Below the pieces are notes generated by a model. That model saw only the letters and a list, made by a program, of their open reading frames with translations. It had not been told where the DNA came from and did no database searches. Made by a program: the position numbers and the translations under genes. A DNA stretch of 64,000 nt from the NCBI GenBank assembly GCA_000995185.1, contig LCET01000005.1, positions 84,277-148,276 of the forward strand, given 5' to 3'. The DNA is from Candidatus Woesebacteria bacterium GW2011_GWC1_42_9. Its GTDB lineage: Bacteria; Patescibacteriota; Microgenomatia; UBA8517. Positions 15,440-31,840 of the stretch are shown here, one piece after another. How positions within the stretch are numbered: position 1 is the first letter of the stretch; each line of letters begins with the position of its first letter.

Positions 15440-16039
15440 TCACCGCGTAACCACTAACAAAAAATGCGGATAAGGTAAAAAACTTTTTAGGTTTATGCGA
15501 GTTTTTACACCAAACCCCAACTCCGTAAGCATCCTCTTATATCCATCTCGGGAAAGAAAATGAAGGCCTTCGTATTTGGTAAAGGTAAACTTAAATAATC
15601 GAGTCATGATCGTTTCCTCGATTTTCAGGACTTTATAAATAAAGCCTGATCCGTTCCCATTTTCAACTACAATCAAACTGCCGTTTTTTTTCAAAAGCTT
15701 CCGGCATATCTCAAAAAATTTACCTTTCTCCCGGCGCGGGAAAAGGTACAAAACATCGATCACAATAATGCAATCAAATCTTACCTTCCTATTTATTAAA
15801 TCGGATAGCTCGCATACTTCAAATTTTAAATTTTTTAGATGGCTATATTTACGCGCATGCCGGATCTTTATCTCTGAAGGATCAATCCCGGTTACTTGCC
15901 TATCTAAAGATCTTTCCGCCAATATTTTCGAAAACAATCCATGGCCACAGCCAACGTCTAGTATCTCCCCCTTTGAGGGCACAAATTTTTCTATTTCACC
16001 AAAGGGGCAAATGAGTGGACGGACAAATTCATAAAACAT
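15440..16039 (-). CDS. Class I SAM-dependent methyltransferase
   Basis: Motif I ILDVGCGHGLFS, plus a later acidic loop. Confidence 0.75.
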   Translation of the reverse strand: MFYEFVRPLICPFGEIEKFVPSKGEILDVGCGHGLFSKILAERSLDRQVTGIDPSEIKIRHARKYSHLKNLKFEVCELSDLINRKVRFDCIIVIDVLYLFPRREKGKFFEICRKLLKKNGSLIVVENGNGSGFIYKVLKIEETIMTRLFKFTFTKYEGLHFLSRDGYKRMLTELGFGVKTRINLKSFLPYPHFLLVVTR

Positions 16040-20737: not shown

Positions 20738-22549
20738 TTAGTTAACAGTAATGCTTCCTCGAGAAATTCCCATCGCACAAGTAATGTTATATGTACCGGT
20801 GCTACCTGGTGTAAATTCAAAGACAATCGTCTGCCCCTTAGTAAACACCTCAATTTTCTTGGTGAGACTTGGGATAGTCACACTACCCATACAGCCCTGA
20901 CCGTCATCCTTTGCCTCAATTTCAAACCGTACAGGTTGGTTAACTTTAACCGTGAATTTATTAGGAGAGATATCCCCGAGAGACGTATAAGTAGATTTCA
21001 ACACTTGAATGTTTCCTTGTGTGATGGTTTGACCAGCGGGTTGATTTGAATTCTGTGTGACTGCTGATTTAGCCCCGCATCCGCAGCCACCCCCATTTGC
21101 ACTGCACGACGAAGAAGCACTCAGCACCGTATTAGCAGCTAGAGTCGAAGGTGTAGCCACGTTTGAATTTTCATCGACCACATTAAATGAACCAGTATAC
21201 ATACCCATAGAACACGAGAAACGGATTGTGCCGGCTTGGGCGGGAGTAAATTCAAAGATGTTTTCGCCTAATTCCAGTCCTCTGCGAATACCTAATTGTT
21301 GCGATACGATGCTACTGGCGCATGAATAAATATCTTTTGAAGTAACAATCCATTTAACAGGAATGTCCTTCACAATCGTAAATTTATTTGGTGAATATCC
21401 AGATGAACTTTGTATCATCCGAACTTCTTGAACTCCATTGACAAGTTTGACATTAGGATCCTCTATGGCACTACTCGTAGAGGCGCTAATGGTAAATACT
21501 CCGAGTACTTTGGGGCTGATACCCAATAAATTTAAGCCATTTGAGACATTAAATAAAGCCAGCAAAATCACTACCACGCCAGCAGTTTTGAAAAATAGTC
21601 TTGCCCCCCGGCCCTTGACAACTGAAGTTAGTCCACCGACTCCAAGTAATCCCGGAGCAGTCCCAAGGGCAAAGACACCCATTGTTAAAGAACCTGAAAT
21701 GGGACTCCCGGTACTCATTGCATATAACTGCATTGCTTGTGTAAAGCCACAAGGTAAAAAGAAAGTCATTGCACCCATGACTACTGAATTTTTGTTACTA
21801 TATTCGCCGAAGGATTTCTTCTTAATCCCGAGCTTGCGGGATAAACTCTTAGGAAGAGTAAAAGATGCTTTTTTCAAAATAGGAAAGATGTCGATTAACT
21901 GTCCGCCAAGAAGCAGCATGACCAGCCCAACGGCAACAATCAGCATTCCCAAGACTGAAGTCGAAAGCTGAAATAATGAACCTGCAAAACCAATCAGTCC
22001 CCCAAGGGCAAAAAAGGATACGATACGTCCTAGATTAAAGAATAGATGGGGCTTAAACTTTTCCAAGGAACTGGCATAAGGGTTTTGAGCTGAGAAACGA
22101 GCGGAGGCGCCAAGCACAAGACCGCCAACTAGTGCCATGCATGTCGAAACTCCAGCGGTAAGGCCAACTAAGAAGACAATTGGCAAACTGCTAAAACTAC
22201 CAGAAATTGAGCTACTTAGGTTAAAAATTCCCAATGTCTTGGCAACTAAAAACAAAGCTGTAGCAATAAAAAAAGCAATTCCTAGATCGAGATAATCTCT
22301 ACGGTTACGGGAGAAAAAATGAATTTTCCCATCCTGGCCGATTCCATACCCTGCACTTTCTACCGCTTTTGCAACTGCACCTTCATCTAATTCACATTCA
22401 CAGTCAATGTTTGCGATGCCTGTTCGATGGTTAACAGAAACTTTTTTCACTCCCGGAACTTTCTTTAACTCATCCTCAATTAATATTTCACAAGACCGAC
22501 AGTGCATGCCCTTAATATGAATTTTTTGATTTTTCATGAATCTAAGCAT
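20738..22549 (-). CDS. HMA domain - DsbD_2/CcdA-like thiol membrane domain - two C-terminal cupredoxin-like repeats
   Basis: N-terminal GMHCRSCE. Then ~8 TMs with single Cys in helices (VSTCMALVGG, FFLPCGFTQAM). Then two ~100-aa repeats (Y/ISPNKFT... ending FSCSMGMYTGSFNVV and ITCAMGISRGSITV), separated by a Cys/Gly patch SSSCSANGGGCGCGAKS. Confidence 0.7.
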   Translation of the reverse strand: MLRFMKNQKIHIKGMHCRSCEILIEDELKKVPGVKKVSVNHRTGIANIDCECELDEGAVAKAVESAGYGIGQDGKIHFFSRNRRDYLDLGIAFFIATALFLVAKTLGIFNLSSSISGSFSSLPIVFLVGLTAGVSTCMALVGGLVLGASARFSAQNPYASSLEKFKPHLFFNLGRIVSFFALGGLIGFAGSLFQLSTSVLGMLIVAVGLVMLLLGGQLIDIFPILKKASFTLPKSLSRKLGIKKKSFGEYSNKNSVVMGAMTFFLPCGFTQAMQLYAMSTGSPISGSLTMGVFALGTAPGLLGVGGLTSVVKGRGARLFFKTAGVVVILLALFNVSNGLNLLGISPKVLGVFTISASTSSAIEDPNVKLVNGVQEVRMIQSSSGYSPNKFTIVKDIPVKWIVTSKDIYSCASSIVSQQLGIRRGLELGENIFEFTPAQAGTIRFSCSMGMYTGSFNVVDENSNVATPSTLAANTVLSASSSCSANGGGCGCGAKSAVTQNSNQPAGQTITQGNIQVLKSTYTSLGDISPNKFTVKVNQPVRFEIEAKDDGQGCMGSVTIPSLTKKIEVFTKGQTIVFEFTPGSTGTYNITCAMGISRGSITVN

Positions 22550-22587: not shown

Positions 22588-23259
22588 TCAATCTGTCCTT
22601 TCTATCACTCCATCTTTATATTCATAAACAAGCGGGTGGCCCAGAGGAAGATTTACGAAGGAAATTTTATCATCCCCAATGTTTTCTAAAAATTTAATAA
22701 CTGCTCGCAGAGTATTACCATGGCCGACAATGAGATTTGTTTCCCCGCGTTTTAACCGGGGGATGATCACTTTCTCAATATACGGGACAACTCTATCATA
22801 TACATCCTTCAGGCTTTCCCCATGAGGAGGTCTATCGAAAAAACCTCTTCTCCACTTAAGTACCTGCAATTTGCCATATATTTCCGCAACCTTTTTTTTG
22901 TTCATCCCTTGCAACGCCCCATAAGCTCGTTCATTTAGAGCTCTGTCCGTATACACATTAATAATTTTCTTGCTTAAATGAGGATTAGCATCATCAGGAA
23001 TATCGTATTTTTTATCACTTTGATGCTGAAAAACACCTATCTTATTTTGTTTAGACAGGATTACTGCCAAGGTTTCGTGTGCTCGTTTGAGATGAGAAGT
23101 AAAGATGGCATCATAGTCAAAATTTTTACAGTGCTTCGCAACTTTATGTGCTTCTCTAATACCCTTCTCCGACAGAGGTACATCTAGCCAACCGGTAAAT
23201 ATATCCAGCTCGTTAAATCTAGATTGACCATGCCTCACAATCACTAATATCCCTTTCAT
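22588..23259 (-). CDS. gpmA: 2,3-bisphosphoglycerate-dependent phosphoglycerate mutase
   Basis: RHGQSRFN phosphohistidine motif and LIVGHGNTLRAV. Confidence 0.85.
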   Translation of the reverse strand: MKGILVIVRHGQSRFNELDIFTGWLDVPLSEKGIREAHKVAKHCKNFDYDAIFTSHLKRAHETLAVILSKQNKIGVFQHQSDKKYDIPDDANPHLSKKIINVYTDRALNERAYGALQGMNKKKVAEIYGKLQVLKWRRGFFDRPPHGESLKDVYDRVVPYIEKVIIPRLKRGETNLIVGHGNTLRAVIKFLENIGDDKISFVNLPLGHPLVYEYKDGVIERTD

Positions 23260-25367
23260 ACAGAAACTAAGTCTTTTTCGGCTCTATTAAGTAAGATCGC
23301 ATTTGTCGCAACGATAATAGATGAAATACTCATGAGGAGAGCAGAAAACTCCGGCCGAAGCGTGATGCCAAAACTTGGGTACAGAACCCCTGCCGCAACT
23401 GGTATCGCTAGAAGATTGTAGACACTCGCCCACACCAGATTTTCCTTCATCTTTCGTACGGTTGCTTTTGAAAGTTTAATGGCTCTTAAAACGTCTGCCG
23501 GGTCAGACTTCATCAGTACTACTTTGGCAGTCTCAATTGCCACATCAGTTCCCGCACCAATCGCGATCCCGATATCAGCCTGCGCCAATGCCGGAGCATC
23601 ATTAACTCCGTCACCCACCATTGCAGTAAATTTACCCTCCTCTTGAAGTTTTTTGACGTATGAAGCTTTGTCTTCCGGCAGAACCTCAGAAAAAACCCTA
23701 TCAATATTGAGCTCTTTGCCAATGGCTTCAGCAGTTTTTTTATTATCACCAGTAATCATAGCCACCTCCAGCCCCAATGCTTTCATTTTGACGATAGCTT
23801 GCTTGGCATTCTCTTTGACTGGATCTAGCGCAGCCGCAACGCCAGCGATTTTATTATCAACCGCGAGTATCATGATTGTTTTGCCTTCCAAAAGCAGCCT
23901 GTCTATATCATTTTGTAGTGGAGAAATATCAACCTTCGAACTATCCATTAATTTCACAGTTCCGACAAGCACATGCCTGCCGTCGACAACTGCTTCAACA
24001 CCATGACCAGCCAGGTTTTTAAACTTCTCAACATTATTTGAAACAGAGATTTTTCTTCGTTTGGCTTCTTCTAAAACCGCCGAGCTTAAAGGATGAGAAG
24101 ACTTTTTTTCGGCCGCAGAATTAAGTTGAATAATTTGATCTTGAGTAAATCCATTAGCGGCAACTACATCGGTAATTCTAGGCTTACCTTCTGTGAGAGT
24201 TCCTGTCTTGTCCATTACTACTGCTTGTATTTTTGATACTTGCTCAAGAGTCGCAGCATCCTTAATAAGAATATTGTGTTTGGCTCCTAACCCAGTGCCT
24301 ACAGCAACAGCAGTAGGAGTAGCCAACCCTAACGCATCGGGGCAAGCTATGACCACTGTCGAGATGGCGAAGGTAAGCGCAAACAGGAGAGGTTGTCCTA
24401 GAACAAAAAACCAGACGACGAAGGTAAGTAATCCTCCACCAACAGCCACAACCACCAAATATCTGGCAAATCTGTCGGCGATTTTCTGTCCCGGAGCCTT
24501 GGAGTTCTGGGCAGTTTCTACCATTTTAACTATCTGGGCCAGTGCAGATTCTCCAGTAACAAGTGATTCATCAATGGCCGTTTCACCCTCAATGATTTCT
24601 CCATCAACCGGCACTTTATCACCAGGCTTGAGGATGAGTATGTCTCCAAGCTTCACTTCTGATGTAGATACCAAGGTCTCTTTCCCGTCCCTCCAAAGTC
24701 TTGCTTGTGGAGGAACGAGGTCAAACAACGCTTGAAGAGCATCGGTGGTTCCACGTCTTGACTTCATTTCCATCCAATGACCAAACAGGACAAAGGTCGT
24801 TAACATGGCTGCGGCTTCATAGAATGATTCCTGACTACCCAGAAGTGTTAACACCACACTAAATACATAGGCCGTGGTAATACCCACCGCAATCAGAACC
24901 GCCATATTCAGTGTCTTGGCTTGCAGGGCTTTATAGGTTGAGTATAGAAAGATCCAGCCTGAATAAAAATAAACAGGTGTAGCCAACAAAAACATGATCC
25001 AACTCGCGGGAATGGGTTCGGGGAGCCTCAAACCCAAGATGTTTGTTCCCAAAGGTGAATAAACAATAATCGGTAGGGTGAGTATGAGGGCAACAAGAAA
25101 TTTGTTGCGGATATCTTCTTCCATGAGTTTTGCCATCTCGCGCCCCGCCAGGCCCGCATGTTCCATCCCCATGGCCATAGTCATACTCATCTTAAATTTT
25201 TCCCAGAAAGACCAGCCTTCGCCAAGGCTTCGGCCGGCAAGCATTTCTTTATGACCCACTTCTTTTTCAACAGGAACCAAAGCCATGCCGCATTTAGGAC
25301 ACTCCCCAGGATTTTTCTCTTGCACTTCGGGGTGCATCGGACATGTATAATATATTGTTTCTTTCAT
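23256..25367 (-). CDS. P1B-type heavy-metal ATPase with N-terminal CPxH...CPxCG metal-binding domain, Met-rich segment and a CPD (not CPC) TM motif
   Basis: YYTCPMHPEV...PGECPKCGMAL, then MSMTMAMGMEH, IACPDALGLATP, DKTGTLT, GDGVNDAP, YN and MSISS in the last TMs. Confidence 0.85.
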   Translation of the reverse strand: MKETIYYTCPMHPEVQEKNPGECPKCGMALVPVEKEVGHKEMLAGRSLGEGWSFWEKFKMSMTMAMGMEHAGLAGREMAKLMEEDIRNKFLVALILTLPIIVYSPLGTNILGLRLPEPIPASWIMFLLATPVYFYSGWIFLYSTYKALQAKTLNMAVLIAVGITTAYVFSVVLTLLGSQESFYEAAAMLTTFVLFGHWMEMKSRRGTTDALQALFDLVPPQARLWRDGKETLVSTSEVKLGDILILKPGDKVPVDGEIIEGETAIDESLVTGESALAQIVKMVETAQNSKAPGQKIADRFARYLVVVAVGGGLLTFVVWFFVLGQPLLFALTFAISTVVIACPDALGLATPTAVAVGTGLGAKHNILIKDAATLEQVSKIQAVVMDKTGTLTEGKPRITDVVAANGFTQDQIIQLNSAAEKKSSHPLSSAVLEEAKRRKISVSNNVEKFKNLAGHGVEAVVDGRHVLVGTVKLMDSSKVDISPLQNDIDRLLLEGKTIMILAVDNKIAGVAAALDPVKENAKQAIVKMKALGLEVAMITGDNKKTAEAIGKELNIDRVFSEVLPEDKASYVKKLQEEGKFTAMVGDGVNDAPALAQADIGIAIGAGTDVAIETAKVVLMKSDPADVLRAIKLSKATVRKMKENLVWASVYNLLAIPVAAGVLYPSFGITLRPEFSALLMSISSIIVATNAILLNRAEKDLVSV

Positions 25368-26042: not shown

Positions 26043-27461
26043 TTAGGAGGACATGGTGGATTTCTGAAATAGAGGCAGGATAATGGTTACTGAGGTTCCA
26101 CTTTCGACTTTACTTTTGATTTTGATCTCTCCACGATGAGCTTTAATAATTCCTTGAGAGATAGCGAGCCCTAATCCCGAGCCTAGGGTTTTTGTTGCCT
26201 TGGACCCTCTATAAAAACGCTCAAAGATATGTCCAAGCTCTTTTTTAGGAATACCAATTCCAGTATCTTTAACTTCCAGTCTCGCGTTTCCTTTCTCTTT
26301 CCGAAGCGATATAGTGACAGACCCGCCTCCAGGTGTATATTTGATCGCGTTATCAACAATATTGAGTACTGCGCGCGATATTTTATCTTCAGCACCACCA
26401 ACGACAATCCCTGGATCAATTTCACTTTCCAAAACAATGCGCTTTCGAGATGCTAGTTTGATAACAATTTCTTGAAGTTCAATCAGAGCATTTGAAAGGT
26501 CAAAATAGCCGTCGACCAACTTAGTATTTTCAGCTCCAGTCCAAGCTAAATCAAGGATATTTTTTATTATTGCCGATAGCTGATTGATATCTATAAGTGT
26601 CTCGTCAAGTGCTCTTTTATACTCCCGATTTGTCCTTTTTTTAGACATAGTTACTTCTACCCCCCCCTTAAGCGTCGCTACGGGTGTCTTTAATTCATGC
26701 GCGACATCGCCAATAAATTGTCTTTCGCGAATAAAAGCATCATTTAGATGGTCCAATAAACTGTTAAATGTTTGCGATAACTCCTCAATCTCATCTCCAG
26801 TATTAGGATTTGGGACACGCTCTTTTAGATTCTCTGCACTAATCTTCTTGAGTTGTTTTGACACTTGAGAGATAGGGCTCAATGCCTTACGAGCCAACAA
26901 AAAACCTCCAGCAACGATGATCGCAAGCAACCCAACGTACACTGAAACGAGGGTTAAAGTGAGAGTATTCAAAGATTTTTGGATAACATCCATGGGTTGA
27001 CCCATTAAGACAATCGCTTGCCGCTGATCACTGCGCTCCGCTGGAAAAATCCCGAACCGCAAAGGAGTTGTTCCAATATTTCGATTCACAAATGTTGGTC
27101 TAATTATATTTGCCGATTTTTCAAGCAAGTCGATGATATCAGACTCGTTTATCCCAAGATCATGCGAGCTATAAAGTATATCCCCATACGGATCGCCAAT
27201 AATCAAAAGCATGCCTGGCATTTCACTAAATTGTTGTGCAAATGTTTGACTACTATTGATGAATGACTGATTCATCACTGCATCTTCTTGAGTGATTATT
27301 TCAACTATTTTCTCATTGTGAGCAGTAATTGCCGAGTCGGTATGAGAGAGAAGAGATCGCTGTGTAAGGAGATAAAAGGCAATGAAAACCAATGCCATGG
27401 CGACGGAAAAAACGAGGGTACACCACATTGTTAATCTAAACCTAATGCTTTTAGTGTTCAT
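26043..27461 (-). CDS. Sensor histidine kinase (two TMs, periplasmic sensor, HAMP, HisKA, HATPase_c)
   Basis: H-box VAHELKTPVATL, plus N, G1 and G2 boxes. Confidence 0.9.
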   Translation of the reverse strand: MNTKSIRFRLTMWCTLVFSVAMALVFIAFYLLTQRSLLSHTDSAITAHNEKIVEIITQEDAVMNQSFINSSQTFAQQFSEMPGMLLIIGDPYGDILYSSHDLGINESDIIDLLEKSANIIRPTFVNRNIGTTPLRFGIFPAERSDQRQAIVLMGQPMDVIQKSLNTLTLTLVSVYVGLLAIIVAGGFLLARKALSPISQVSKQLKKISAENLKERVPNPNTGDEIEELSQTFNSLLDHLNDAFIRERQFIGDVAHELKTPVATLKGGVEVTMSKKRTNREYKRALDETLIDINQLSAIIKNILDLAWTGAENTKLVDGYFDLSNALIELQEIVIKLASRKRIVLESEIDPGIVVGGAEDKISRAVLNIVDNAIKYTPGGGSVTISLRKEKGNARLEVKDTGIGIPKKELGHIFERFYRGSKATKTLGSGLGLAISQGIIKAHRGEIKIKSKVESGTSVTIILPLFQKSTMSS

Positions 27462-27464
27462 ACT

Positions 27465-28133
27465 CTAGTCGCCGACTTTATAACCTACACCATGAATTGT
27501 CTTAATCAGATTCTTTTTAGAATCTGTGCCAATTTTCTTTCTTAAAGCTACTATAAAGACGTCCACAACATTGCTCATTCCATCAAAATTATAGTCCCAT
27601 ACGTGTTCAGTGATCATCGTTCTCGTCACCACCTCTCCTTTGTGTCTAAGCAATAGTTCTAAAACTGCAAATTCTTTAGGTGTGAGATTAATGATTTTTC
27701 CATCTCGCTTTACAACATGCTTAAGCGGATCTAGTTCTATACCATTGAGTGTAAGAACCGGAGAGATTTCTTGGTGGCTTCTTCTAATAAGCGCATGCAC
27801 CCGAGAGCGAAACTCAACAAAAGAGAATGGCTTGGTAACGTAATCATCAGCACCGCTATCAAGCCCGGAAACCTTATCTTCAGTTGTTGATTTAGCTGTA
27901 AGCATTAGGATTGGGGTTTTAATGTTTTTCTTCCGAAGCTCACGGCAAAGCTCTAAACCACTCATTTTAGGAAGCATAATGTCCAAGACAATAAGATCAT
28001 ATTGTTCACTTTCTGCTAAGTATTGTCCCTCTTCGCCATCAAAAGCCTGGTCAACTGCAAATCCATCTTCAACTAATCCCTTTTTAATAATATTCGAAAG
28101 CCGGTGTTCATCCTCAACAATCAAGACCCTCAT
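27465..28133 (-). CDS. OmpR-family response regulator
   Basis: Receiver LIVLDIMLP with the conserved Asp, and a C-terminal winged helix. Confidence 0.9.
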   Translation of the reverse strand: MRVLIVEDEHRLSNIIKKGLVEDGFAVDQAFDGEEGQYLAESEQYDLIVLDIMLPKMSGLELCRELRKKNIKTPILMLTAKSTTEDKVSGLDSGADDYVTKPFSFVEFRSRVHALIRRSHQEISPVLTLNGIELDPLKHVVKRDGKIINLTPKEFAVLELLLRHKGEVVTRTMITEHVWDYNFDGMSNVVDVFIVALRKKIGTDSKKNLIKTIHGVGYKVGD

Positions 28134-28189
28134 GGGCCTATTATATTAATAAATTATTAAAAAATCATTAAGACTTATATTTTTATTAA

Positions 28190-28459
28190 TTATCTCTTGC
28201 TGAAATAATTGTAGGACACCGCGAAAGCGTACCCGATGACCCAGGCAAAAATTACCGATGATGCCAAACCCACAGTAAATGTCCCAAGCGATAAATTCCA
28301 AGATCCAAGCCGGGTTAGTTCAATTCCATGCAACCATGACTGGCCAACCGAAAACATCAGATCAGGAAACAAACTAACTAGAATGCGACAAGCAACATAG
28401 ACAACTCCCGTCGTAGCGGCCAAAGCATTTGCTGTGGCGGTAGGGTTATTCTTCATCAT
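28190..28459 (-). CDS. Small hypothetical membrane protein (89 aa, 3 TM)
   Basis: Hydrophobic. No motif recognised. Confidence 0.4.
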   Translation of the reverse strand: MMKNNPTATANALAATTGVVYVACRILVSLFPDLMFSVGQSWLHGIELTRLGSWNLSLGTFTVGLASSVIFAWVIGYAFAVSYNYFSKR

Positions 28460-28498
28460 TTCTCACCTCCTTCTTAGATACTTTATATTTATATCACT

Positions 28499-29434
28499 TT
28501 ATACTCCACAACCACCACTTTTTTTGGGGGGCTGTTGAATAAGTCCTTTATCAGTTAACCATTGTTTAACCCTTTGCCAGCCTGAGGCAGATGAGTAATC
28601 CTTGCTCAATAAAATTTGAGCATCGATATCTTTGAAAGATTTGCCCTCTTTATTAGAAAAATAGAGTGCTATGTCATAATAGTTTCCTGGAAACCAAAAT
28701 GCATTAAAATATTTCCCGACTTCATACATTTGACTTTCGGTGGCGTCATTGCCGGCCATTAATTGAAGTACTCCTAAAAGGGCCATGCCATGGTTGCAAT
28801 CAGGGAAAGCGGTAGAATTATTGCAACAGGGTCTGAAAATATTTGAGGCGACCAGATAAACTCGCGCTTCCTGCTCTTTGGTTAGAGGAATAAGTGTGGA
28901 TTTTGAGTAATAAGTCATTGCGTCGCCCTTACCCAAGGTCCAACCGCCAGTTGAAGCAAAATTTCCGGCACCCTTTTTACCTCCATATTTCATCATGTCA
29001 CCGTCATCCAAAATCTGTGACTTGTTGGCCAAACCTACTGCCCAAAAAAAGTTTAGTAAAAAATAAGAATTATCACGGGTGATTTTAATTTTTTCGTTTG
29101 ATTCTTTGAGAAGTACCCCCTCTTGTTCTAATGTGAGGGGTTGACTCGATTTTTCATAAATAGCTTTAAACTTCTCCGGGTCAATAACCCCCATCGCTAT
29201 CATTTTAGGACCTAAGTCGCCATATGTAGCGCCAATCTCAAAACCATCCACTGGATTAATTTCGTTAAACAAAGTGTCTTTACTAGTTGCAGTCGATATG
29301 GTGGAAGTGTCCTCAGCTGTCTTGAATCTGCTCACTCTAAGTTTCATGACTTGTGGAATATAAAGTACAACTACCAATATTAAATTAGCAACTATACTAA
29401 TTATAAGGACTAACAACAGTTTATTTTTCTTCAT
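28499..29434 (-). CDS. Hypothetical Cys-rich exported protein
   Basis: N-terminal TM anchor, motif RPCCNNSTAFPDCNHG, C-terminal ...KKSGGCGV. Confidence 0.5.
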   Translation of the reverse strand: MKKNKLLLVLIISIVANLILVVVLYIPQVMKLRVSRFKTAEDTSTISTATSKDTLFNEINPVDGFEIGATYGDLGPKMIAMGVIDPEKFKAIYEKSSQPLTLEQEGVLLKESNEKIKITRDNSYFLLNFFWAVGLANKSQILDDGDMMKYGGKKGAGNFASTGGWTLGKGDAMTYYSKSTLIPLTKEQEARVYLVASNIFRPCCNNSTAFPDCNHGMALLGVLQLMAGNDATESQMYEVGKYFNAFWFPGNYYDIALYFSNKEGKSFKDIDAQILLSKDYSSASGWQRVKQWLTDKGLIQQPPKKSGGCGV

Positions 29435-30245
29435 GGCCTTTGTATTTCAACAACTTATAAAAAGTAAATAAAACAATCCCAAAAACAAACAGATCTACTA
29501 TTGGGTTTTGGAAATACTTAGCAATTTCAAAAACGATCAGGCGGATTTTTTGGCTATATAGCTCCATTTGATTCATCTGAATTTTTCCCTGAAAGTTATA
29601 CACAGCAATTAAAATCCCTGTAAAAAAGAATATTCCGGCGCCCAAATAATTCAGCACGTTATAAATCTTATGCCTATTAGGTCCAGCAATTTTTGCCGTC
29701 GCTTTTTCATAAAATATCGACATAACAAAAAGAGGCATCACGATGCCGACTACATAGGCCAAGGAAACAATTAATGCTTGGAAGAGGGAGGGCGATAAAG
29801 ATGTAAGCGTTACTGCAACAAACAATACTGGTGCACAGCAGGCTGAGGTCAAGCCAGACATAAGCCCCAGTCCAAACACGCTCGCGGCATCAACCTTCTT
29901 GCCCTGAAGGCTAGTTACATGGAATATTTGCGGCAAATGGAAGATTGGCTTAAGCGTCATAACCCCCATTAGAATCATGACTAACGCACCAAAGTAATAA
30001 ATAGCTTCGTGATAAGCATCGAAGAAAAAAATGACAGATCGAACACCTAAGGCTATCGGCACCAATACAAAAGCCAGGCCTAAGGCAAAAATAAAAGTAT
30101 AGTACATGACCCTTTTTTGCTCTCTAAAAATTGTCCCAAGATAAGAAGGAAATAGAAACGTAATGCAACACGGCGCAAATAAAGCCATTACTCCGGCCAA
30201 AAAAGAAGCGGTTAACGATATTCCGAATAGAAAATTTGAATCCAT
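29421..30245 (-). CDS. CcdA/DsbD-like thiol-disulfide membrane transporter
   Basis: Two repeats with TM Cys doublets: LFAPCCITFLFPSYL and LTSACCAPVLFV. Confidence 0.55.
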   Translation of the reverse strand: MDSNFLFGISLTASFLAGVMALFAPCCITFLFPSYLGTIFREQKRVMYYTFIFALGLAFVLVPIALGVRSVIFFFDAYHEAIYYFGALVMILMGVMTLKPIFHLPQIFHVTSLQGKKVDAASVFGLGLMSGLTSACCAPVLFVAVTLTSLSPSLFQALIVSLAYVVGIVMPLFVMSIFYEKATAKIAGPNRHKIYNVLNYLGAGIFFFTGILIAVYNFQGKIQMNQMELYSQKIRLIVFEIAKYFQNPIVDLFVFGIVLFTFYKLLKYKGHEEK

Positions 30246-30247
30246 AG

Positions 30248-30712
30248 TTATTTTACTTTTGCTTTAATACTAAAAACTAATTTCTGATTCTCCGGATCAT
30301 TGGTAATTACATATACTTCTCTCTCAACTAGTCCATACACAGGCATAGTAGCTGGTCGATAAGTAAGTCGGACTGTAGCGGTATCTCCTGGTGCAATTTC
30401 AGTCACAAACCCACTCTGCGAGTGCATACTGTACTCTTTGCTCGTTTCGCCTTTGTAAATAATTTGCCCGGTTGTACAACCACAACTTGAGTTAACGTTG
30501 AGAATTTGTAGAGGTTTCGTTCCAATATTTTTTAGAGTGTAATCTTGCTGTTTTACATCTGATACTTTAATTTCACCTATGTCAAAAAAGATCTGTGATG
30601 TTTCCGCCCTCGGACGATCAGAATCTGGTACTGAAATGTTTCTAGTAAAAGCCAATCCAGCGATGGCTCCAAATAAAAGAATAAGACTAATAATAACCGC
30701 CTTAAATGACAT
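30248..30712 (-). CDS. DUF1573-domain protein (CGC motif)
   Basis: Signal anchor then ...LKNIGTKPLQILNVNSSCGCTTGQ...IAPGDTATV..., the DUF1573 consensus. Confidence 0.75.
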   Translation of the reverse strand: MSFKAVIISLILLFGAIAGLAFTRNISVPDSDRPRAETSQIFFDIGEIKVSDVKQQDYTLKNIGTKPLQILNVNSSCGCTTGQIIYKGETSKEYSMHSQSGFVTEIAPGDTATVRLTYRPATMPVYGLVEREVYVITNDPENQKLVFSIKAKVK

Positions 30713-30740
30713 CTGATAACCAATCTTACAATTGAAGGAG

Positions 30741-31472
30741 TTAAGATTTTATTAAGATCTGTAAATACATCACAAGAGCTCCCAAAATCACCAAAAAATA
30801 TTTTCTAATACCTGGAATCCTGCTATCCTCCTCCACCTGCGGCAAAAAGTCGCTTGCACCCAAATACAAAAATATCCCCGCCGAAATTGCCAAAAATATC
30901 CCTATCTTGTCTGGGGTATCTTTAAAATAAAAATAAACCAGGAGCGCTCCCGGAAAAGTAGCCAAAGCTGAGAATAAATTAATTAGAAATGTTCTTTGTT
31001 TTGTATACCCTGCTTTGATCAATATCCCAAAATCACCTATTTCGTGAGGTGTCTCATGTAAAAAAGTCGCAAGAGCAACCACTAATCCAAATTTAGGCTC
31101 AATCAAGTAGCTTGAGGCAATGGCGATCCCATCGATGACATTGTGGATCGTGTCCCCAACGATCACTAGAGGGATTGCCGATTCTAAATCGTTCCTCCTC
31201 CCCTCATGATGGTGTAAATGACAAAAAAACTGCTCAAACAAAAAAGAAGCAATAAATGAAACTAAAACGACCGTAAAGGCAATGTCCCCTGCCAGCTCAC
31301 TCGCCTCAGGTATCAAATTAATAATCGAAACAGATAAAAGCACCCCTGCCGCAAAAGGAACCGCGTTATGGCTTAGTGCCCTCGCCCAAGAGTTTTTGAC
31401 CAAAAAAAACACTCCGCCAATCAGCCCTGCAATACTCCCAAGCGCCGTGAGTAACAGTATTTCCACTAACAT
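30741..31472 (-). CDS. ZIP-family divalent metal transporter (ZupT-like)
   Basis: HNVIDGIAIASS and HETPHEIGDFG metal-binding TM motifs. Confidence 0.85.
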   Translation of the reverse strand: MLVEILLLTALGSIAGLIGGVFFLVKNSWARALSHNAVPFAAGVLLSVSIINLIPEASELAGDIAFTVVLVSFIASFLFEQFFCHLHHHEGRRNDLESAIPLVIVGDTIHNVIDGIAIASSYLIEPKFGLVVALATFLHETPHEIGDFGILIKAGYTKQRTFLINLFSALATFPGALLVYFYFKDTPDKIGIFLAISAGIFLYLGASDFLPQVEEDSRIPGIRKYFLVILGALVMYLQILIKS

Positions 31473-31502
31473 AATATTTAAATATTAACATACTTATGTT
31501 AA
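31473..31502. promoter_or_regulatory. Two adjacent perfect palindromes (AATATTTAAATATT and TTAACATA-CT-TATGTTAA) abutting the ZIP start codon
   Basis: 14-nt and 18-nt inverted repeats at 31473-31486 and 31485-31502, in the divergent region between ZIP and the 31520 ORF. Confidence 0.45.
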
Positions 31503-31519
31503 CCTTTTTGTGAACAAAA

Positions 31520-31840
31520 ATGGCCCAGCCAAAATACAAAGAGTATGTAGAAAAGATGCTTACTGCAAACACTGAGCTTTTTGCCGCCTTCAGAAAAATC
31601 CATGATCGATATGTCCTTAACCCAGAAAAATATCAGGAGGAATTTAATGAGGCTGGACGCGAAGTGATGAGCGTTATAAACGACTTTGAGGATCGATTAT
31701 GTTCCCAGAGTGAGCGGGGGGGCTACGGAAGCTTTACTACTAAGCTTGCAGAAAAATTTAGAGCAGAGATAAAAAAGCATTTTAGCGAGATTGATAAAGT
31801 GGGTATCGTAGTCTTCAAAGTTCCAAAAATTAATCTCTAG
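31520..31840 (+). CDS. Hypothetical protein
   Basis: 106 aa, charged/helical, weak SD. Confidence 0.4.
   Translation: MAQPKYKEYVEKMLTANTELFAAFRKIHDRYVLNPEKYQEEFNEAGREVMSVINDFEDRLCSQSERGGYGSFTTKLAEKFRAEIKKHFSEIDKVGIVVFKVPKINL

Follow-up and report, generated by a model that had tools for sequence, protein, structure and literature searches.

An envelope thiol system that is fed by CcdA or DsbD and tied to copper is already known. Scs is a copper-induced thiol-oxidoreductase system whose ScsB and ScsC components also bind Cu(I) (PMC10907172), and in both ScsABCD and DsbD/DsbC a protein of the DsbD/CcdA family powers extracytoplasmic Cu(I)-binding cysteine proteins (PMC10907172, PMC3322552). 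Also described is CcmH/NrfF (PF03918; PDB 2hl7 and 2kw0), a thiol reductase without a thioredoxin fold that is fed indirectly by DsbD or CcdA. Here we analyzed a 64,000-nucleotide stretch (the window) of contig LCET01000005.1 from Candidatus Woesebacteria bacterium GW2011_GWC1_42_9, in which three adjoining minus-strand genes (referred to below as the triad) encode a DUF1573 protein, a CcdA-like membrane protein and an exported, unclassified protein of 311 residues (P311). We liken the triad to ScsABCD and DsbD/DsbC, and P311 to CcmH. We propose, with a probability of roughly one half, that the triad is a copper-linked envelope thiol-reducing relay built with non-thioredoxin parts.

Scs is likewise under the control of an envelope or metal stress regulator. 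The triad differs from it in its acceptors, in its CcdA and in its host. Unlike the partners in Scs, the putative acceptors do not have the thioredoxin fold: P311 is a helical protein resembling CcmH, and DUF1573, which bears a CxC motif, is an Ig-like sandwich. The CcdA is minimal; it lacks the alpha and gamma domains and has its cysteines in vicinal doublets. The host is a Patescibacterium. Among the proteins of the window we found no Scs domains, either an ScsB-type DsbD with an N-terminal periplasmic domain or a thioredoxin-fold ScsC or ScsD, and we regard the resemblance to Scs as one of function only. ScsB/C/D and DsbD–DsbC shield the thiols of the envelope during copper stress. In function, the proposed relay can also be likened to the DsbD→CcmG→CcmH route.

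P311 is encoded at positions 28499-29434, as an open reading frame (ORF) call of a family that has no Pfam or NCBIfam model, the CcdA-like protein (274 residues) at 29421-30245, and the DUF1573 protein (154 residues) at 30248-30712. Rechecking the coordinates confirmed the gene order and minus-strand ORFs of an original prediction made from this DNA, including the 14-nucleotide (nt) overlap of P311 with the CcdA-like gene (29421-29434), the 2-nt gap between the CcdA-like and DUF1573 genes (30246-30247) and the 28-nt spacer (30713-30740) that separates DUF1573 from a gene for a ZIP-family transporter. Four genes had been described, and all four are real; the interval also holds a fifth, not described then, which encodes a DUF5676 protein of 89 residues (28190-28459, minus strand; PF18926, E 5e-20). 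The cysteine motifs were likewise found in the translations, namely RPCCNNSTAFPDCNHG and the C-terminal GGCGV in P311 and the doublets APCC and SACC in the CcdA-like protein.

At least 588 species-representative genomes carry a P311 homolog, and the best 80 loci were searched with the proteins of the window. Copper genes were scored as a Cu ATPase, HMA or YtkA gene within 8 kb. Among 22 Patescibacteria loci with a short P311 like that of the window, 20 had a CcdA with doubled cysteines (CC type), 20 a DUF1573 gene and 20 copper genes, and in 19 the triad was adjacent. The 30 loci of Patescibacteria and others with a longer form of P311 had a CC-type CcdA in 13 cases, DUF1573 in 10 and copper genes in 15. 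In Chloroflexota (28 loci), copper genes were seen in 14, DUF1573 in 3 and a canonical CcdA in 3; none had the CC type. Contigs with close P311 homologs showed the order DUF1573–CcdA-like–P311 with the same 2-nt gap and a 14-17-nt overlap. Because this overlap and gap pattern recurs across species, the arrangement lies far beyond chance. The recurrence bears out the view that the three genes form a conserved, translationally coupled unit tied to copper genes.

The original prediction had placed this module downstream of a copper island. The downstream neighbors on the same strand include copper genes, so the triad lies inside the island, as an integral and presumably co-regulated part of it, and not beside it. 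These genes encode an OmpR-type response regulator (27465-28133), a sensor histidine kinase of the heavy-metal CopS/CusS/SilS type (26043-27461), a YtkA-like protein, an HMBD-type P1B ATPase (23256-25367), a histidine phosphatase, an HMA–DsbD_2–cupredoxin fusion (20738-22549) and a CopA with two HMA domains, all on the minus strand. The two-component system scored best against heavy-metal CopR/CopS-type NCBIfam models, both just under the cutoffs (regulator, TIGR01387, 253 bits with a cutoff of 279; kinase, TIGR01386, 252 bits with a cutoff of 292), and the kinase gave a weak match to the CusS sensor domain (E 5.5e-4). In relatives, the response regulator directly follows P311, and it is probably cotranscribed with the triad. 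Behind the triad, these relatives carry the regulator and the kinase and, in many cases, DUF5676, together with YtkA, Cu ATPases, the HMA–DsbD_2–cupredoxin fusion and a multicopper oxidase.

The DUF5676 protein has two transmembrane (TM) helices and one conserved cysteine in the first. The cysteine is conserved, and 15 of 52 Patescibacteria loci had the gene in the 8-kb neighborhood; it is a frequent, not an obligatory, companion of the triad. The best explanation of these patterns is that the triad, DUF5676 and the CopRS-like two-component system form one operon-like unit within the copper island. A scan of positions 27900-31700 for promoters and terminators gave signals no better than shuffled sequences, and operon boundaries are therefore not given by it. 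The common denominator of the locus is copper (heavy-metal) stress together with extracytoplasmic thiol chemistry.

The CcdA-like protein aligned over 217 residues (residues 8-224) with CcdA of Thermus thermophilus (PDB 5vkv; E 1.7e-10), and the first cysteine of each doublet fell on the catalytic cysteine of TM1 and TM4, respectively. The proline-containing motifs of CcdA were present as APCC…P in TM1 and ACCAP in TM4. The protein therefore shares with CcdA (PF02683) the same fold, as judged by sequence, both catalytic cysteines and the prolines that follow them. It departs from CcdA by an invariant extra cysteine after each catalytic one (PCC and ACC), by one more C-terminal helix than the Thermus protein has, and by its context, which is a copper island and not cytochrome c or sporulation genes. 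Furthermore, the window copy lies below the Pfam model, with no match in Pfam or NCBIfam even at E 10. Its near homologs are named CcdA, some with PF02683, and one paralog (locus L013) matches PF02683 above the cutoff (E 1.2e-8). The doublets (LFAPCCITFLFP and S[A/S]CCAPVLFA) were invariant in every Patescibacteria copy and also in a second paralog clade, the companion of long-form P311.

This CC subfamily (APCC and SSCCAP) also occurs on plasmids of Burkholderia contaminans, Cellulomonas, Streptomyces and Microvirga. The copper islands in which it stands include CopC/D, DUF305, DUF3105, P-type ATPases, and either a CopY-type regulator or a two-component system. Each of these plasmid copies is immediately followed by a membrane redoxin with a CxxC motif and by a glutaredoxin. 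CcdA electron pathways usually have this gene order, and the order is our strongest reason to think that reducing equivalents are still moved by the CC variant.

P311 is annotated as hypothetical in every source, and a 100%-identical copy is found in Candidatus Woesebacteria bacterium GW2011_GWB1_43_14. The family comprises 609 clusters at 50% identity from at least 588 species, and more than 6,000 clusters at 90% identity were among the candidates scored. Conservation is strong, with 64-79% identity among the close homologs that were aligned. P311 did not match Pfam or NCBIfam even at E 10, and a 42-sequence profile likewise gave no match to Pfam, NCBIfam or PDB sequences; a Foldseek search of its predicted structure against the PDB returned no solved relative. 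From the N terminus on, the protein has a TM helix, a domain that is mostly helical and contains an invariant FASTGGW loop, a helical bundle with the motif RPCC-x8-C-x-H, and a Gly-rich tail that ends in GGCGV. In the AlphaFold model (mean confidence score pLDDT, 77), the TM helix at the N terminus was followed by a body made mainly of helices; the FASTGGW loop was poorly modeled, and the tail was disordered. The RPCC…DCNH segment formed a loop between helices 186-197 and 214-228. Across 42 diverse family members, W131, G164, P202, C203, C204, N206, D212, C213 and C309 were invariant, and H215 was nearly so.

Residues 185-238 of P311 resemble the thiol-reductase bundle of CcmH, a three-helix bundle whose redox motif also lies between helices 1 and 2 (PMC3884852). 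Using hhalign, the P311 family profile gave P 0.06 against Escherichia coli CcmH alone and P 0.0013 (score, 26.8) against an 11-sequence CcmH/NrfF profile built from plasmid records. The reversed profile scored 11.8, and 200 column shuffles scored 12.0 ± 2.4, with a maximum of 25.9. The alignment spanned helix 1, the Cys loop, and helices 2 and 3, with C204 on the second cysteine of the CcmH motif LRCxxC and D212-C213-N214 on the conserved D-S-N. CcmH thus reads R-[C]P-x-C-N-N-S…D-S-N where P311 reads R-P-C-C-N-N-S…D-C-N. The LRCxxC redox motif itself is absent from P311, which has FRPCC instead, and a further cysteine replaces the serine of D-S-N. P311 also differs from CcmH by about 130 extra N-terminal residues, by its cysteine-bearing tail and, in Patescibacteria, by the absence of a CcmF partner. 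Neither P311 nor any of the 42 family members matched CcmH (PF03918) in Pfam at E 10, and a CcmH hidden Markov model (HMM) built here recovered the true CcmH genes in the loci and not P311. Because there is no HMM match and the first cysteine of CxxC is missing, P311 is not a member of the CcmH family; the sequence comparisons point to a remote relationship.

Two side observations concern the architecture of the family. The long-form P311 proteins (P0122, P0123, P0126 and P0137) have an extra membrane domain of about 200 residues, with GCxxCG in a TM helix followed by LPxxGxE. In the closest relatives of the window this domain is a separate gene (locus L047, 15022-15576; locus L005, 11822-12472); the window holds no copy of it, and it belongs to no Pfam or NCBIfam family. 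The stand-alone protein of the relatives gave a nonsignificant match to MerTP (E 0.11). One family representative, P0228, is a P311–BNR fusion.

The third member of the triad matched DUF1573 with 57.3 bits, compared to a gathering cutoff of 26.1 (PF07610, E 1.6e-15). It has an N-terminal membrane anchor followed by a PapD/ASH-like beta-sandwich (model pLDDT, 91), and an invariant C77-x-C79-T (C77-G-C79-T in the window) lies in a hairpin, where the two cysteines flank a tight turn between strands. The original prediction had spoken of a family CGC motif. SSCGCTTG is indeed present in this protein, but a strict CGC is not what the family keeps: the CxC was conserved in all neighboring DUF1573 copies as C-x-C-T, with G, N, H, M, A, D or S in the middle. 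The nearest solved relative of the model is an uncharacterized Porphyromonas gingivalis protein (2qsv). DUF1573 has been listed among prokaryotic selenoproteins, with UGC (PMC9312934, PMC13188914), and the protein of the window partially matches the OS_HP2 selenoprotein model. These known selenocysteine forms fit a reactive first cysteine in DUF1573.

Our view of DUF1573 context comes from the P311-anchored loci and from three plasmid hits. In one Portnoybacteria locus, the N terminus of a DUF1573 protein encoded beside P311 is a domain with CPCC that resembles CcmH (hhalign P 5.9e-5). On alpha-proteobacterial plasmids, a heavy-metal ATPase gene adjoins the DsbE–TlpA–…–SCO–DUF411–DsbA–CcdA islands in which DUF1573 (with CMC) stands. 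Upstream, the DUF1573 gene of these plasmids is overlapped by a gene (locus L101, 4860-5810; locus L102, 4965-5867) for a hypothetical protein that has a CFC motif and whose sequence looks like repeats of the BNR/YCF48 type; the same clusters contain a gene annotated as YCF48-related/BNR. We had considered the overlapping gene (300-316 residues) as a P311 homolog and rejected it, as it reads as a repeat protein of that type. As a separate observation, the strand at residues 70-82 of DUF1573 (ILNVNSSCGCTTG) resembles the active-site strand NVASxCGxT of glutathione peroxidase, and four of the six weak, nonsignificant PDB sequence matches (E 0.3-0.7) were glutathione peroxidase-like proteins.

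Outside Patescibacteria, P311 was found in two further settings. Three Anaerolineales loci had the order CcdA–rhodanese lipoprotein–P311–CopA, with a canonical CcdA. Another Chloroflexota locus read Redoxin–CcmF–CcmH–Zn-ribbon–CcdA–HMA protein–lipoprotein–P311–DUF1573–DUF1573, and true CcmH genes stood less than 3 kb from P311 in three loci. Plasmids of Burkholderia thailandensis, B. contaminans and Paraburkholderia fungorum carry P311 homologs with 31-36% identity that keep RPCCDNSTFxQDCNHG and the C-proximal cysteine. Their neighbors encode an S-adenosylmethionine (SAM)-dependent methyltransferase, a heavy-metal ATPase, CcdA, TlpA, SCO, DUF411, peroxiredoxins and a MerR-type regulator. Since the Chloroflexota and Burkholderiaceae loci also show it, the pairing of P311 with a CcdA-type protein and a metal ATPase recurs in three phyla.

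Several features of these distant loci are reported as such. In the Anaerolineales CcdA next to P311 (locus L073, 691-1500; locus L083, 6639-7430; locus L084, 4915-5676), the TM4-type GWSPCIG precedes the TM1-type FLSPCVLPLVP. The reversed motif order, together with Pfam matches in two stretches, suggests that this CcdA is circularly permuted. The Burkholderiaceae P311 proteins (locus L098, 6866-7819; locus L099, 6863-7813; locus L100, 6854-7771) have RRRFL signals resembling those of the twin-arginine translocation (Tat) pathway; the Patescibacteria forms have a plain TM anchor. They always adjoin the methyltransferase, which is of class I and has a WCCVSGGC motif. A methyltransferase of the window (15440-16039) was considered as its counterpart and discarded, as the similarity is of the generic class I kind only.

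The proposal of a thiol-reducing relay draws on what was observed at these loci: the synteny, the linkage to copper, the homology to CcdA with both catalytic cysteines, and the invariance of the cysteines. We infer the electron donor, the direction of flow, the order of the partners and the substrates. In our model, the CC CcdA would pass reducing equivalents from the cytoplasm across the membrane via the cysteines of TM1 and TM4, each of them a vicinal pair. P311, anchored beside CcdA, would accept these equivalents via the CcmH-like loop with C203, C204 and C213, via its flexible C-terminal Gly-Cys tail, or via both. The C-x-C hairpin of DUF1573 would be a downstream acceptor or client. As a net effect, extracytoplasmic cysteines would be held reduced under copper stress, or Cu-catalyzed disulfides would be reversed, and the protected cysteines would include the Cu(I)-binding ones of neighboring copper-handling proteins. 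The idea of a CcdA-based thiol pathway, already put forward for this locus, is partly supported; it is favored by the comparative context, that is, the CcdA, CcmG, CcmF and CcmH neighbors of P311 and the redoxins that follow the CC CcdA. The selenoprotein forms of DUF1573 and its fusion to a CcmH-like domain in Portnoybacteria also speak for the relay.

A number of points weigh against such a relay. No thioredoxin-fold partner (WCxxC or a redoxin gene) was found in the 64-kb window, and we know of no CcdA that reduces a non-thioredoxin protein directly. A disulfide relay needs one cysteine per helix, and the invariant second cysteine in both helices is unexplained by the redox model. The likeness of P311 to CcmH is remote: there is no HMMER or Pfam match, the hhalign probability is 18%, and the first cysteine of CxxC is not conserved. 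The Tat-type signals of the Burkholderiaceae proteins could mean that these homologs hold a cofactor or metal centre and not a free dithiol. Finally, at locus L055 a Patescibacteria CC-type CcdA is fused to a metal-binding YHS domain (PF04945, E 2.8e-11), so a direct role in metal handling is possible.

Such a role is the core of the main rival, a soft-metal relay resembling Mer, which we regard as possible but doubtful. The four membrane cysteines of the CC CcdA would then bind Cu(I) or another thiophilic metal and move ions, not electrons, and P311 and DUF1573 would be extracytoplasmic metallochaperones that exchange Cu(I) ligands as MerP→MerT does for Hg(II). The TM helices of MerT, MerC and MerF work with vicinal CC pairs, and the triad resembles MerT/MerP in such membrane pairs, in the closely spaced Cys pairs of its exported partners and, in this reading, in the ligand-exchange logic. 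The vicinal pairs that are invariant in both catalytic helices, needless for disulfide exchange, and the CcdA–YHS fusion are better explained in this way. Closely spaced cysteines in every partner, the TM helix with GCxxCG in long-form P311 (with its faint MerTP-like match) and the embedding of the triad among Cu ATPases and HMA proteins also fit. A metal relay accounts less well for the redoxin (CxxC) and glutaredoxin genes that follow the CC subfamily in cultured bacteria, which are the signature of an electron pathway, and for the pairing of P311 with a canonical single-Cys CcdA in Chloroflexota. Moreover, the islands already encode two P1B ATPases for copper export. Unlike MerT/MerP, the triad has no MerA or MerR and stands in a copper context, not a mercury one; it shares no significant sequence similarity with any Mer transporter, and no triad protein matched the MerT, MerP or MerTP models. 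Only tentatively, then, can the Cys-doublet CcdA be viewed as a Cu or soft-metal thiolate transporter that evolved from the CcdA scaffold, as part of an unrecognized Cu(I) relay with P311 and DUF1573 that would run across the membrane and beyond it, a counterpart for copper of MerP–MerT. If true, many Patescibacteria would have that relay, and plasmids of cultured Actinomycetota and Burkholderiaceae would encode it as well.

It is rather unlikely that the triad serves not general stress repair but the maturation of cuproproteins. In that case it would reduce the Cys ligands of specific extracytoplasmic copper proteins encoded in the island, load them, or do both, much as TlpA–Sco–PCuAC acts on the CuA site; its targets would be the cupredoxin fusion, YtkA-like proteins and, in relatives, the multicopper oxidase. 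The nearby genes for YtkA and for the HMA–DsbD_2–cupredoxin fusion, with its GGGCGCG linker, the multicopper oxidase close by in relatives, and the proteobacterial homolog islands with SCO, PCuAC, DUF411 and TlpA are consistent with such a function, and TlpA- and Sco-dependent assembly of CuA is documented (PMC6669012). On the other side, there is no single cuproprotein that regularly accompanies P311 in all of Patescibacteria, Chloroflexota and Burkholderiaceae. The closest links are those to the efflux ATPases and the sensor system, in keeping with a stress response. It is very improbable that CcdA and a CcmH-like reductase are a variant or relic of cytochrome c maturation that prepares CxxCH motifs for the attachment of heme. 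CcdA homology, the CcmH-like module of P311 and the three Chloroflexota loci with P311 beside CcmF, CcmH and CcmG speak for it. Against it, the 64-kb window has no exported protein with CxxCH and lacks CcmF, ResB/C and any thioredoxin-like gene; P311 does not keep LRCxxC; the linkage in Patescibacteria is to copper and not to heme genes; and, as is established for candidate phyla radiation (CPR) genomes, Microgenomates are without respiratory cytochromes.

In the literature searched, we found no description of the CC-type CcdA, P311 or DUF5676. What is new here is P311, DUF1573 as a partner, DUF5676, the vicinal-Cys subfamily of CcdA and the Patescibacteria setting, none of which we found in that literature. 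The locus offers a testable setting for three uncharacterized families at once (DUF1573, DUF5676 and P311) and defines a distinct copper-island subfamily of CcdA by the vicinal cysteines in both catalytic helices. Such proteins are at present annotated as "cytochrome c biogenesis protein", a name that misleads where the organism has no cytochromes c. If the triad is a redox relay, the acceptors open to CcdA would extend beyond thioredoxins, and Patescibacteria would counter copper-induced thiol stress in a way of their own; if it handles metal, it would represent a new class of copper transporter. Genetic work is feasible, with homologs present on plasmids of culturable Burkholderia, Paraburkholderia, Streptomyces and Cellulomonas.

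The gene upstream of the triad encodes the ZIP-family transporter (243 residues, 30741-31472, minus strand; PF02535, E 7e-32). Called ZupT-like in the original prediction, it passes the Pfam Zip model (111 bits; cutoff, 35) but falls short of the ZupT equivalog model (67 bits; cutoff, 252). It had also been counted as a member of the module. Of the 80 loci, a single one has a ZIP gene neighboring the triad, and that gene lies on the opposite strand; we therefore view ZIP as a bystander or chance neighbor and judge it a separate gene outside the conserved module. In relatives, a small gene of 86-94 residues precedes DUF1573 where the window has ZIP (locus L003, 4401-4685; locus L001, 4419-4679). 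The L003 copy (94 residues) gave a weak match to CsoR/RcnR, a family of metal-sensing repressors (PF02583, E 0.009), below the cutoff.

As previously noted, a palindrome lies upstream of ZIP (31485-31502), and its two 8-nt arms, TTAACATA-ct-TATGTTAA, are perfect. It overlaps promoter-like hexamers and occurs once in the window, where near-copies with up to 3 mismatches were no more numerous than in shuffled sequences. With a single copy in the window, it was rejected as a regulon motif, and it is a candidate operator for ZIP only. An ORF of 106 residues on the plus strand (31520-31840; no family match) diverges from ZIP and shares the intergenic region that contains the palindrome.

Two of the copper genes showed unusual features. 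The HMBD-type P1B ATPase lacks 32 residues right after TGES, which are kept in all ten closest relatives (TGES[LPV…GEDT]ALAQIV). The gap could reflect a defective gene copy, genuine variation or an error of assembly. The fusion at 20738-22549, in which the predicted GGGCGCG was confirmed, has a cytoplasmic HMA domain, a DsbD_2 membrane domain with one cysteine in each of two helices, and two cupredoxin-like domains, with the linker SANGGGCGCGAKS. In many relatives this fusion adjoins the triad.

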